This document shows, in pieces, positions 4,509-21,776 of a DNA stretch of 64,000 nucleotides (position 1 is the first letter of the stretch; every line of letters begins with the position of its first letter). The notes beneath the pieces were generated by a model, which was given only the letters and a program-made list of their open reading frames with translations, did not search any database and was not told the DNA's origin. The DNA comes from Escherichia coli (GTDB lineage Bacteria; Pseudomonadota; Gammaproteobacteria; Enterobacterales; Enterobacteriaceae). The stretch is from the NCBI RefSeq assembly GCF_013315695.1, contig NZ_CP054353.1; one strand, written 5' to 3'. Position numbers and translations under genes: made by a program.

Positions 4509-6671
4509 ATGGCCTTTATGCTAAGTCCTTTGCTCAAACGCTATACCTGGAACAGCGCCTGGCTGTATTACGCGCGTATTTTTATTGCGCTTTGTGGAAC
4601 CACAGCGTTTCCGTGGTGGCTGGGTGATGTAAAACTGACGATTCCGCTGACGCTGGGGATGGTGGCAGCGGCGCTGACCGATCTCGATGACCGACTGGCG
4701 GGACGTTTGCGTAACCTCATCATTACGCTGTTCTGCTTTTTTATCGCCTCGGCCTCAGTAGAACTGCTGTTTCCCTGGCCCTGGCTATTTGCGATTGGCT
4801 TAACGCTCTCAACCAGCGGCTTCATTTTGCTCGGCGGTCTGGGTCAACGCTATGCAACAATTGCCTTCGGTGCGTTACTGATCGCCATTTACACTATGTT
4901 GGGGACGTCACTGTATGAGCACTGGTATCAGCAGCCGATGTATCTGCTGGCCGGTGCCGTCTGGTACAACGTCCTGACACTTATTGGTCATCTACTGTTC
5001 CCGGTCCGCCCGCTGCAGGACAACCTGGCGCGTTGCTATGAACAACTGGCGCGTTACCTTGAGCTCAAGTCGCGCATGTTTGATCCTGATATTGAAGATG
5101 AAAGCCAGGCACCGTTGTACGATTTGGCTCTCGCCAACGGTCAGCTGATGGCGACATTGAATCAGACGAAACTCTCGCTGCTGACCCGCTTACGTGGCGA
5201 TCGTGGTCAACGGGGAACGCGTCGCACGCTGCATTATTACTTCGTCGCGCAGGATATTCACGAGCGTGCCAGCTCTTCTCATATTCAGTATCAAACATTG
5301 CGTGAACATTTTCGCCACAGCGACGTGCTGTTCCGTTTTCAGCGGCTGATGTCGATGCAGGGCCAGGCGTGCCAGCAACTGTCACGTTGTATTTTGTTGC
5401 GTCAGCCTTATCAACATGATCCGCATTTCGAGCGCGCTTTTACGCATATTGATGCTGCGCTGGAGCGGATGCGCGATAACGGCGCACCTGCCGATTTACT
5501 CAAAACACTGGGATTTTTGCTGAACAATTTACGCGCCATTGATGCCCAACTGGCAACAATTGAATCAGAACAGGCCCAGGCACTGCCCCATAATAATGAC
5601 GAAAATGAGCTCGCTGATGACAGCCCGCACGGATTGAGTGATATCTGGCTGCGTCTTAGCCGTCACTTCACGCCGGAATCCGCCCTCTTCCGTCATGCGG
5701 TAAGAATGTCGCTGGTGTTGTGCTTCGGCTACGCCATCATTCAGATAACCGGAATGCATCACGGGTATTGGATCTTGCTGACAAGTTTGTTTGTCTGCCA
5801 GCCAAACTATAACGCCACGCGCCACCGCCTGAAGTTAAGGATTATTGGGACGCTGGTCGGTATCGCCATTGGCATTCCTGTGCTGTGGTTTGTACCGTCA
5901 CTGGAAGGGCAACTGGTGCTACTGGTTATTACCGGCGTGCTCTTTTTTGCCTTCCGTAACGTGCAATACGCCCATGCAACGATGTTCATCACACTTTTGG
6001 TGCTACTTTGTTTTAACTTGCTGGGTGAAGGTTTTGAAGTGGCGTTACCTCGCGTAATCGATACGCTGATTGGTTGTGCCATTGCGTGGGCGGCGGTGAG
6101 CTACATCTGGCCTGACTGGAAGTTTCGCAATCTGCCGCGCATGCTCGAACGTGCCACCGAGGCCAACTGTCGCTATCTCGATGCCATACTGGAGCAATAC
6201 CATCAGGGGCGTGATAACCGTCTGGCGTATCGTATTGCCCGCCGCGATGCACACAACCGTGATGCCGAACTGGCGTCGGTGGTATCAAATATGTCCAGCG
6301 AGCCGAACGTTACCCCGCAAATTCGCGAGGCCGCGTTTCGGTTGCTGTGCCTTAACCATACGTTTACCAGCTATATCTCAGCCCTCGGTGCTCACCGGGA
6401 GCAGTTAACTAATCCTGAAATTCTGGCGTTTCTTGATGACGCAGTTTGCTATGTTGATGGCGCGTTACATCATCAACCTGCTGATGAAGAACGCGTCAAT
6501 CAGGCATTAGCTGGCCTGAAACAGCGGATGCAGCAACTTGAACCACGGGCAGACAGCAAAGAACCTCTGGTCGTACAACAAGTTGGGTTATTGATTGCAT
6601 TACTGCCAGAGATTGGTCGTCTGCAACGCCAGATTACTCAAGTTCCGCAGGAAACTCCTGTTTCGGCGTAA
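4509..6671 (+). CDS. yccS: Inner membrane protein YccS (putative efflux/FUSC-like family)
   Basis: 720-aa polytopic membrane ORF matching YccS; true start could be the ATG at 4518. Confidence 0.85.
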   Translation: MAFMLSPLLKRYTWNSAWLYYARIFIALCGTTAFPWWLGDVKLTIPLTLGMVAAALTDLDDRLAGRLRNLIITLFCFFIASASVELLFPWPWLFAIGLTLSTSGFILLGGLGQRYATIAFGALLIAIYTMLGTSLYEHWYQQPMYLLAGAVWYNVLTLIGHLLFPVRPLQDNLARCYEQLARYLELKSRMFDPDIEDESQAPLYDLALANGQLMATLNQTKLSLLTRLRGDRGQRGTRRTLHYYFVAQDIHERASSSHIQYQTLREHFRHSDVLFRFQRLMSMQGQACQQLSRCILLRQPYQHDPHFERAFTHIDAALERMRDNGAPADLLKTLGFLLNNLRAIDAQLATIESEQAQALPHNNDENELADDSPHGLSDIWLRLSRHFTPESALFRHAVRMSLVLCFGYAIIQITGMHHGYWILLTSLFVCQPNYNATRHRLKLRIIGTLVGIAIGIPVLWFVPSLEGQLVLLVITGVLFFAFRNVQYAHATMFITLLVLLCFNLLGEGFEVALPRVIDTLIGCAIAWAAVSYIWPDWKFRNLPRMLERATEANCRYLDAILEQYHQGRDNRLAYRIARRDAHNRDAELASVVSNMSSEPNVTPQIREAAFRLLCLNHTFTSYISALGAHREQLTNPEILAFLDDAVCYVDGALHHQPADEERVNQALAGLKQRMQQLEPRADSKEPLVVQQVGLLIALLPEIGRLQRQITQVPQETPVSA

Positions 6672-7263
6672 GAGAGTCAGCCCATTCTGCAAGCTCCTGG
6701 CGGCGTGCCACCGGGAGCGCAGCTTCATGAATGCCGATAATGGCCCCTTCAAGCATAAACAGAATCTTTTCTGTCACCAGACTGTTTTGCTGCCGCAGTC
6801 GCAACCAACACATTTTTGCCCCAAGTATACGTAACGCCCGTACATCCTTAATCCCCACCTCCCCGAGAATCGCTTCCAGATGAAAAGACATATTGGGCAA
6901 ATCTTTCAGTCTTTCCCGGGTATTGCGCGTGCTTTTCTCTTTCAGCGCTGCATCGAGAGAATATTTCGACAGACGCACCAGCTTCAGTTGATTTCGCCAT
7001 AGACTTTCATCAACTCGATAGTAATTGAGGGTAACGGATCGGCCACACTTTTTATATGTCAGCCAGACAGGCGGATGTTTTACACAGTACTGTGCACTTT
7101 GCTCACAAGCCCGAAGATACAACTCACCATCAGAAACCATCGCAAACACCGTGTCGTCAACGGTCAGGCTGTAACTGCCAAACAATGATCGGTATTCAAT
7201 TGTGCCCAACGTTGCCAGGTATTCTTGTGATTTATAGATCCGCTTATAGGAGAGGCTTTTCAT
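6634..7263 (-). CDS. sxy: Competence/CRP-S regulon activator Sxy (TfoX)
   Basis: 209-aa ORF matching E. coli Sxy/TfoX; 3' end overlaps yccS convergently. Confidence 0.9.
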   Translation of the reverse strand: MKSLSYKRIYKSQEYLATLGTIEYRSLFGSYSLTVDDTVFAMVSDGELYLRACEQSAQYCVKHPPVWLTYKKCGRSVTLNYYRVDESLWRNQLKLVRLSKYSLDAALKEKSTRNTRERLKDLPNMSFHLEAILGEVGIKDVRALRILGAKMCWLRLRQQNSLVTEKILFMLEGAIIGIHEAALPVARRQELAEWADSLTPKQEFPAELE

Positions 7264-7439
7264 AAAATTCCTTTTAAAATCATAACATAAAAGAATGATT
7301 CACATTAACGGATCCGTTAACTACGAAAATAGGCAACTTATTCTTAAGGGGCAAGATTAATTTATGTTTTCCCGCCACCAACGACAAAATTTGCGAGGCT
7401 CTTTCCGAAAATAGAGTTGATCTTTGTCGTCACTGGATG

Positions 7440-7459
7440 TACTGTACATTCATACAGTA
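7440..7459. promoter_or_regulatory. LexA operator (SOS box) of sulA
   Basis: tactgtacattcatacagta = CTGT-N8-ACAG palindrome 23 bp upstream of the sulA ATG. Confidence 0.85.
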
Positions 7460-7481
7460 ACTCACAGGGGCTGGATTGATT

Positions 7482-7991
7482 ATGTACACTTCAGGCTATG
7501 CACATCGTTCTTCGTCGTTCTCATCCGCAGCAAGTAAAATTGCGCGTGTCTCTACGGAAAACACTACAGCCGGGCTTATCAGTGAAGTTGTCTATCGCGA
7601 AGATCAGCCCATGATGACGCAACTTCTACTGTTGCCATTGTTACAGCAACTCGGTCAGCAATCGCGCTGGCAACTCTGGTTAACACCGCAACAAAAACTG
7701 AGTCGCGAATGGGTTCAGGCATCTGGGCTACCCTTAACGAAAGTAATGCAGATTAACCAGCTCTCCCCCTGCCACACCGTGGAGTCAATGGTTCGCGCTT
7801 TACGCACGGGCAATTACAGCGTGGTGATCGGTTGGTTGGCAGATGATTTGACTGAAGAAGAGCATGCTGAACTTGTTGATGCGGCAAATGAAGGTAACGC
7901 TATGGGGTTTATTATGCGTCCGGTAAGTGCATCCTCTCACGCCACGAGACAACTTTCCGGGCTAAAAATTCACTCTAATTTGTATCATTAA
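7482..7991 (+). CDS. sulA: SOS cell-division inhibitor SulA
   Basis: 169 aa from ATG 7482 ([11 protein letters not shown]...); recognised SulA; LexA box upstream. Confidence 0.92.
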
Positions 7992-9413: not shown

Positions 9414-9446
9414 AAAAAACCCCGCAGCTGCGGGGTTTTTTTTCGC
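9414..9446. terminator. Bidirectional intrinsic terminator between convergent ompA and matP
   Basis: aaaaaaccccgcagctgcggggtttttttt: GC-rich hairpin flanked by A- and T-tracts. Confidence 0.85.
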
Positions 9447-20666: not shown

Positions 20667-21776
20667 GTGGCGACATTAACCCGGCTTTTTATTCATCCTG
20701 TTAAATCGATGCGCGGCATTGGTCTTACACATGCTCTGGCAGATGTCAGTGGTCTGGCCTTCGATCGCATCTTTATGATCACGGAACCTGACGGTACGTT
20801 TATTACTGCTCGCCAGTTTCCCCAGATGGTACGGTTTATTCCTTCACCTGTGCATGATGGCTTGCATCTCACCGCACCAGATGGCAGTAGTGCATATGTT
20901 CGTTTTGCTGATTTCGCCACACAAGACGCACCAACCGAAGTTTGGGGCACACATTTTACCGCGCGAATTGCGCCAGACGCGATCAACAAATGGCTAAGTG
21001 GATTTTTCTCCCGCGAAGTGCAATTACGCTGGGTGGGGCCACAAATGACCCGGCGCGTGAAACGCCACAACACTGTACCCCTGTCATTTGCTGATGGTTA
21101 TCCTTACCTTCTTGCTAACGAGGCCTCGTTACGTGATCTCCAACAACGTTGTCCGGCCAGTGTAAAAATGGAGCAATTCCGCCCCAATCTGGTGGTTTCC
21201 GGTGCATCGGCCTGGGAAGAAGATAGCTGGAAAGTGATTCGCATTGGTGATGTCGTGTTTGATGTGGTTAAGCCTTGTAGCCGCTGTATTTTCACCACCG
21301 TCAGCCCAGAAAAAGGGCAAAAACATCCGGCAGGCGAACCATTAAAAACGCTGCAATCTTTCCGTACTGCCCAGGATAACGGCGATGTCGATTTTGGTCA
21401 GAATTTAATTGCCCGTAATAGCGGCGTGATTCGCGTTGGCGATGAGGTGGAAATTCTGGCAACGGCTCCAGCTAAAATTTACGGCGCAGGTGCCGCCGAT
21501 GATACTGCCAACATCACGCAACAACCGGACGCAAACGTAGATATTGACTGGCAGGGACAGGCATTTCGTGGAAATAACCAACAGGTGCTGCTGGAGCAAT
21601 TAGAAAATCAGGGAATTCGTATCCCTTATTCTTGCCGCGCGGGCATTTGTGGAAGTTGCCGTGTTCAGCTTTTAGAAGGCGAAGTCACGCCGCTGAAAAA
21701 ATCAGCAATGGGTGATGATGGCACTATTCTTTGCTGTAGTTGTGTACCGAAGACTGCACTTAAGCTGACGCGTTAA
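20667..21776 (+). CDS. ycbX: MOSC-domain protein YcbX with C-terminal 2Fe-2S ferredoxin-like domain
   Basis: 369 aa; C-terminal cysteine cluster [11 protein letters not shown]...CCSC; matches YcbX. Confidence 0.85.

Follow-up and report, generated by a model that had tools for sequence, protein, structure and literature searches.

A conserved palindrome over the transcription start site of Escherichia coli sxy as a possible operator

The sulA-sxy spacer and the sxy start site

We analysed a 64-kb stretch of Escherichia coli DNA (64,000 nucleotides from contig NZ_CP054353.1 of RefSeq assembly GCF_013315695.1; hereafter the window) in which yccS (4509-6671, + strand, as annotated) is followed by sxy, or tfoX (6634-7263, − strand), and then by sulA (from 7482, + strand) and ompA. 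The sxy and sulA genes were assigned from their open reading frames and the K-12 annotation. We observed that sxy and yccS are convergent and that their 3′ ends share 38 bp (6634-6671), as they do in the annotation of K-12. sulA and sxy are divergent and separated by a spacer of 218 bp. Reading in the sxy direction (− strand), this spacer contains a −35 hexamer TTGCCC (7349-7354) and, 17 bp further on, a −10 hexamer TATTTT (7326-7331), a combination given as the predicted sxy promoter in a genomic SELEX study of RNAP-sigma70, in which the polymerase alone bound the sulA-sxy spacer (PMC3946193). The same study predicted a promoter in the sulA direction, TTAACT-16-TATTCT (7316-7344, + strand), whose −35 coincides with the end of the palindrome described below, and flagged H-NS for the spacer. 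A simple promoter scan called no sxy promoter; TTGCCC and TATTTT score under its threshold. The Shine-Dalgarno sequence of sxy, AAGGA (7269-7273, − strand), lies 5 nt upstream of the ATG (7263-7261).

The known CRP-S site of Psxy was located in the window from its published half-sites (PMC6728893) at 7389-7410 (− strand), centred at 7399.5; on the + strand, its proximal half-site TGCGA occupies 7392-7396 and its distal half-site TTCCG 7403-7407. Autoactivation of Psxy by Sxy through this site is documented in E. coli (PMC6728893), and the genetics of Psxy are Class-I-like, with AR1 required and AR2 dispensable. Of the two premises on sxy control in an earlier note on this locus, the CRP autoregulation is the one documented for E. 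coli; the tight post-transcriptional limit on Sxy expression comes from H. influenzae and V. cholerae. On the far side of the CRP-S site, we observed that the block AAAGATCAAC (7416-7425, sxy direction) is invariant across the 30 aligned loci described below. Its opposite strand forms the sulA −35 (TTGATC) and it adjoins the CRP-S site, so that the control regions of sulA and sxy stand back to back within ~30 bp. The sulA LexA box (7440-7459) reads TACTGTACATTCATACAGTA and differs from the K-12 box, TACTGTACATCCATACAGTA, by a single base (C to T) in the central spacer, a variant found in several Escherichia lineages.

Downstream of the −10 hexamer, and separated from it by 5 variable bases, lies a perfect 16-bp palindrome, TTAACGGATCCGTTAA (7305-7320, − strand). 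Identity with its own reverse complement bore out the perfect symmetry claimed in the earlier note; the maximum half-length is 8 and symmetry ends there. Its placement 42-57 bp upstream of the sxy ATG, in the divergent sulA-sxy region, also held, and the Shine-Dalgarno sequence falls outside it. The Dam site that had been pointed out is present as well: a GATC (7311-7314) within TTAACGGATCCGTTAA forms the dyad centre and recurs in 27 of the 30 loci, so that it is common and not universal. A lone perfect 16-mer is weak evidence, since the window holds four, where Markov-1 simulations give 1.16 on average. Two of these four lie inside long open reading frames, namely TAACGAGGCCTCGTTA (21116-21131) and GCCCAACGCGTTGGGC (24115-24130). 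The former has TAACG/CGTTA arms as in the sxy element, around a centre of 6 bp and not 4 bp, a likeness that is probably due to chance. Another of the four, a perfect 20-bp palindrome, AACCCCGCAGCTGCGGGGTT (9418-9437), is placed 18 bp past the ompA stop and is presumably the stem of the ompA terminator. Allowing up to 3 mismatches, no related copy of the sxy dyad was found elsewhere in the 64-kb window. What sets the sxy palindrome beyond chance is its conservation within E. coli and across genera.

Two K-12 datasets place the sxy transcription start site (TSS) inside the palindrome. Cappable-seq gives a + strand TSS at 1,020,306 in U00096.2 with a score of 58.6, which corresponds to window position 7318 (− strand), the A that is the third palindrome base, and to an mRNA beginning 5′-AACGGAUCCGUUAAUG; this placement rests on an offset between U00096.2 and U00096.3 that we take to be 777 from the ompA coordinates. 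SMRT-Cappable-seq gives a forward TSS for b0959 at 1,021,082 in U00096.3, which is window position 7319, the second palindrome base, if the coordinate is 1-based; the ompA TSS in the same table (1,020,186) agrees with the known 133-nt ompA leader. The sxy ATG is at 1,021,138 in NC_000913.3, which puts the start 55-56 nt before the ATG and 7-8 nt past the −10, and the 100 bp before the ATG are the same in the window and in K-12. Relative to this start, the palindrome spans about −2 to +14, with the dyad centre at ~+6.5. Since the TSS falls at its second or third base, the palindrome is not a mid-leader hairpin. Its description as part of the sxy leader thus gives way to an overlap with the start site, and a TSS downstream of it, the outcome named beforehand as speaking against the element, was not what the data showed.

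From the mapped TSS, the CRP-S site is centred at −81.5, a distance that fits the Class-I-like behaviour of Psxy. Sinha & Redfield (PMC3330819) mention a different, unpublished start, at a G located 115 bp upstream of the ATG. The K-12 Cappable-seq data contain no + strand TSS at this G, and from it the CRP-S centre would be at ~−21.5, a poor fit to Class-I-like activation. On these two grounds we treat it as an unconfirmed or minor upstream start.

We also observed features nearer the sxy ATG. Cappable-seq contains a weak second TSS (1,020,352 in U00096.2, score 3.4) near 7272, 9 nt before the ATG, and the leader carries a TATGAT hexamer (7279-7284, − strand) that matches the −10 consensus at 5 of 6 positions and lies exactly 7 nt before this weak start. 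The TGATTT block containing part of TATGAT is invariant save one substitution in Pseudenterobacter. Together, the hexamer and the weak TSS could mark either a place where sigma-70 pauses or a minor promoter whose sxy mRNA would be almost leaderless. In Escherichia, the leader further contains a 7-codon uORF (7258-7282, − strand; ATG ATT TTA AAA GGA ATT TTA TGA), the stop of which overlaps the sxy ATG (ATGA). The uORF is shortened to ATG ATT TAA in Salmonella and Citrobacter and its ATG is replaced by TTG in some Enterobacter-group taxa, and because of this truncation and start loss it is probably not conserved as a coding unit.

Conservation of the dyad across enterobacterial loci

Of 5421 complete E. 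coli genomes, 5241 carry the same 42-bp sequence around the element. For the wider comparison, we assembled orthologous sulA-sxy-yccS loci from Escherichia (with E. albertii, E. fergusonii and the cryptic clades), Salmonella, ~12 Citrobacter, Intestinirhabdus, Enterobacter, Lelliottia, Leclercia, Yokenella, Pseudenterobacter and three more distant lineages. The sources were a Sxy-based genome scan, protein look-ups for eight genera (including Salmonella), and four distant Sxy loci with one added. All 30 loci share a common layout of CRP-S site, −35 (TTGCnn), 17 bp, −10 (TATKTT), a gap of 4-6 bp and the 16-mer, which lies ~40 nt before the ATG throughout.

The information profile of alignment A3 and the 30-locus table delimit a 14-bp core, TAACGGATCCGTTA (7306-7319, − strand), that is conserved to the same degree as the −10 hexamer. 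Columns 19-32 of the alignment carry 1.2-2.0 bits, with the exception of column 30, compared to 0.1-0.9 bits in the flanks at columns 16-18 and 33. The conservation footprint is thus symmetric around the dyad and falls sharply at both ends. A check of other enterobacterial sxy leaders had been proposed in the earlier note; in the loci compared here the core is near-invariant across genera. The GGA, as well as T2 and A15, are present in 30 of 30 loci, and CGGATCCG forms a near-invariant core in the same set. Variation is found at position 13 (T/C/G), position 11 (C/T) and, less so, position 4 (A in 22 of 24), and the right half is weaker than the left at positions 11 and 13. The symmetric pairs are complete (8/8) in Escherichia and one Enterobacter and number 7/8 in nine other loci; an alternative perfect 16-mer, CTAACGGATCCGTTAG, occurs in an Enterobacter. 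In many Citrobacter, the right half-site is degenerate and 4-6 of the 8 pairs remain symmetric. At pair 1/16, Escherichia has T-A, as against C-G in the Enterobacter/Lelliottia clade.

The element also persists where the surrounding sequence does not. A metagenomic locus with 49% Sxy identity has TTAGCGGATCCGTTAA (15/16) in an unrelated spacer and leader, and in Leclercia and Yokenella the element is likewise kept amid scrambled surroundings. Enterobacteriaceae bacterium ESL0689, with 47% Sxy identity, carries TTAGTGGAACCACTAA at exactly the same spacing. There, pairs 4/13 (A-T to G-C) and 5/12 (C-G to T-A) are altered on both arms, the GATC is gone, and the dyad has grown to 20 bp, 2 bp further upstream. 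An equivalent dyad is absent from Tatumella and from a locus with 44% Sxy identity, and the matches listed from a metagenome DNA-pattern scan for variant dyads included an unrelated repeated locus and random hits. Its retention across enterobacterial genera suggests that the dyad is a control element, and the evidence as a whole supports a functional, dyad-symmetric cis-element on the sxy start.

Readings as RNA structure, start-site sequence or methylation switch

We considered whether the element could act in the RNA, which is the main rival to the operator favoured below and which we regard as possible, though less likely than not. It would then be a 5′-terminal element, a short stem-loop (U)AACG-GAUC-CGUU(A) essentially without unpaired 5′ nucleotides, and the hairpin, or a protein or sRNA reading the invariant CGGA, would control either mRNA decay (through RppH / RNase E 5′-end sensing) or translation. 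The conserved block does begin at most 1 nt from the mapped TSS, and the stem falls within the ~2 nt of the 5′ end expected of a 5′-terminal stem (mRNA 5′-AACGGAUCCGUU). Its four transcribed pairs are intact in 17 of 30 loci. ESL0689 compensates two stem pairs (A-U to G-C and C-G to U-A), a classic signature of RNA pairing, and sense-strand G.U intermediates at pairs 4/13 and 6/11 are found in at least three lineages (C. rodentium, the locus with 49% Sxy identity and several Citrobacter). The GGA is invariant, and in most taxa a second GGA occurs at the Shine-Dalgarno sequence 44 nt downstream (AAGGA in most loci, GGUGA in the Enterobacter/Lelliottia group); a GGA in a short hairpin together with a GGA at the Shine-Dalgarno sequence is a CsrA-like arrangement, and literature searches returned no paper linking sxy to CsrA. 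Sinha & Redfield refer, without detail, to 'regions of strong base pairing' upstream of E. coli sxy (PMC3330819). The stem is, however, energetically marginal. Folding from a mapped start, which the earlier note had proposed, gave only −1.6 kcal/mol for the hairpin (−3.2 for the full 16-mer), leader z-scores ranged from −1.2 to +1.7 and were no better than those of shuffles, and RNAalifold placed 0 consensus pairs in the leader. Paired cells amounted to 83.3%, compared to 83.0% in column shuffles, and the sole covarying pair in alignment A3 is 1/16, which lies upstream of +1. Moreover, 13 of 30 loci have a disrupted hairpin, 10 of 24 distinct sequences cannot form pair 4/13 although the bases around it are conserved, and, with +1 at the A, nothing in the transcript can pair with the invariant A15. 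The Shine-Dalgarno sequence, ~40 nt away from the hairpin, is not sequestered. In the abstract of their 2015 paper, Jaskolska and Gerdes reportedly described CRP-S autoregulation and degradation of Sxy by Lon and found no translational control of sxy, which also argues against this reading. Other RNA features were tried and rejected. Long-range pairing of the leader with codons 7-9 (GUUGCC/GGCAAC, GGAUCCGUU/AGCGGAUCU), predicted for E. coli, is not kept in other genera, shows no covariation and scores under its shuffles. No terminator-like site of the kind needed for an intrinsic terminator or attenuator was found across 7200-7520, and the single Rfam match, to a snoRNA (E = 0.09, under the gathering threshold), is a chance one.

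Alternatively, the promoter may need no dedicated regulator at all. The block would then be conserved as the start site and first transcribed bases of a weak promoter that depends on its activator, where it would act on TSS choice or escape, and its palindromic form would be a by-product of a GGATCC core that is complementary to itself. The step from T(−1) to A(+1) is a standard pyrimidine-purine start, the block adjoins the −10 with a fixed gap of 4-6 bp in 30 of 30 loci, a perfect 16-mer is statistically unremarkable in 64 kb, and the binding of the spacer by RNAP-sigma70 alone in genomic SELEX (PMC3946193) is consistent with this view. We nevertheless consider it unlikely: RNA polymerase has no known sequence-specific requirement reaching +13, the variable part is the discriminator (−10 to +1) while +1 to +13 is invariant, and neither a dyad-symmetric footprint nor the concerted change of both arms in ESL0689 would be expected of an asymmetric initiation signal. 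Less probable still is a Dam-methylation switch, in which the GATC at +5 to +8 would make Psxy sensitive to methylation or SeqA, so that sxy transcription would be coupled to replication or to a factor that blocks methylation. The GATC does sit at the dyad centre in 27/30 loci, and the sulA −35 and sxy codons 8-9 contain further GATCs close by. It is replaced, however, in two Citrobacter (GAGC) and in ESL0689 (GAAC) with the rest of the dyad kept, and the conserved stretch reaches well past it. In addition, neither sxy nor sulA is among the genes given in the main text (Table 1) of a report on 66 sites with changing methylation (PMC5155068), and our literature searches returned no paper linking sxy to GATC or Dam.

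A possible operator and its counterparts

The reading that we favour, tentatively and at somewhat less than an even chance, is that the palindrome is an operator for a putative dimeric DNA-binding regulator, positioned over the sxy start. It would be the Escherichia version of a 14-16-bp dyad cis-element just 3′ of a sigma-70 promoter, with TTGCCC-17-TATTTT activated by CRP-Sxy from −81.5. The putative regulator on the dyad would block open-complex formation or promoter escape, and the self-activating sxy loop would stay off until a signal frees the regulator. The sequence, the TSS position, the fixed promoter geometry and the symmetric footprint are observations; from them we infer the binding of a protein, repression and the nature of the signal.

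Several observations argue for an operator. What is kept is the identity of the sequence and not merely its complementarity, and the symmetric footprint takes in bases at or before +1. The core is invariant even where the RNA stem is broken, as in the C. freundii complex, Lelliottia and Pseudenterobacter, where pair 4/13 is A.C or A.G and the core is unchanged, and the stem itself is energetically marginal and without statistical support. The position is the classical one for a repressor of a CRP-activated promoter, and the element combines a dyad in the range of 12-20 bp, overlap with the core promoter and TSS, and conserved half-sites with symmetric boundaries. Of the two roles suggested in the earlier note, a site for a dimeric protein therefore fits better than an mRNA leader hairpin, which found little support. 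A natural condition that induces E. coli sxy has yet to be described (PMC3330819), in line with a repressor that keeps the gene off. Against an operator, the promoter is not silent in K-12, where the sxy TSS has a Cappable-seq score of 58.6, compared to 3.4 for its weak neighbour; there is no second copy of the motif in the 64-kb window, the right half-site is degenerate in many Citrobacter, and the ESL0689 compensation and G.T intermediates suit RNA pairing. The GATC of the dyad is not among the variably methylated sites in the main text of the methylation report (PMC5155068), which thus gives no sign of stable occupancy in LB.

We also looked for a binder among known regulators. To our knowledge, no E. 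coli regulator has a TAACG-GATC-CGTTA motif. In a comparison by eye, none of the RcdA box and the CRP, FNR, LexA, PurR/LacI-type, SlyA/MarR-type and Fur motifs fits the dyad. In the literature on SELEX and ChIP-exo together with sxy, RcdA was the only regulator found, and no ChIP-exo target was linked to the gene; RcdA binds the sulA-sxy spacer in genomic SELEX, but we rejected it as the binder of the dyad, because its TTGTnnACA box bears no relation to the palindrome and its footprint is on the sulA side, upstream of the gene or within it. The exact 16-mer did not occur in the literature searched. In our own comparison, GTTAATGTGAATCATTCTT (7290-7308, − strand), which overlaps the right arm, matches the Fur-box consensus at 14 of 19 positions, and at 12 of 19 in Salmonella.

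Known control of sxy includes Lon proteolysis beside CRP-S/Sxy autoactivation. E. coli possesses a complete Sxy-inducible DNA-uptake regulon, yet a natural condition that turns sxy on has not been found (PMC3330819). A repressor on the dyad, if true, would explain why sxy is essentially off under all laboratory conditions tried. It is conceivable, though less likely than not, that such a putative repressor holds sxy off in Escherichia, Salmonella, Citrobacter and Enterobacter and that its ligand or signal is the missing inducer of the CRP-S regulon. A conserved cis-element on the sxy start offers a concrete handle on the missing competence input in enteric bacteria; if it is merely start-site sequence or a weak 5′ hairpin, it amounts to a minor annotation of one promoter.

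Compared to known systems, the sxy dyad differs from the CRP and CRP-S sites of the competence regulon, one of which is part of the same promoter and also dyad-like. The palindrome lies 81.5 bp downstream of the genuine CRP-S site, and a CRP site in its place was rejected, as only 2 of 11 positions per half match the 22-bp CRP consensus when this is centred on the dyad (own comparison). The 5′-UTR stems of sxy/tfoX in H. influenzae (PMC2248739) and V. cholerae belong to the orthologous gene and are leader structures proposed to limit Sxy, and an analogous stem was suggested for E. coli sxy by Sinha & Redfield (PMC3330819). The stems of those two species are long structures that join the leader to the Shine-Dalgarno or coding region, and compensatory mutants have proven them. 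The E. coli sxy hairpin, by contrast, comprises 4-6 bp at the very start of the mRNA, is separated by ~40 nt from the Shine-Dalgarno sequence and has no alifold support; it neither sequesters the Shine-Dalgarno sequence or start codon nor shows covariation, as a translation-limiting stem of the H. influenzae type would.

The hp1 hairpin of ompA mRNA is a 5′-terminal stabilising stem-loop, and a stem at the 5′ end blocks 5′-end-dependent decay. The sxy stem resembles it in beginning at, or at most 1 nt from, +1. Compared to characterised protective hairpins, it is far weaker (−1.6 kcal/mol), and many taxa have a broken stem although their sequence is kept. With lac O1 and LacI, the sxy dyad shares a length of 14-20 bp, a centre a few bases past +1 at a CRP-activated sigma-70 promoter, and one half-site that is better conserved than the other. 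It differs from lac O1 in that its regulator is only putative, its motif is not known to match that of any E. coli regulator, and neither auxiliary operators nor regulon copies were found in the 64-kb window. In conclusion, the sxy dyad is a new example in a familiar class of cis-elements.
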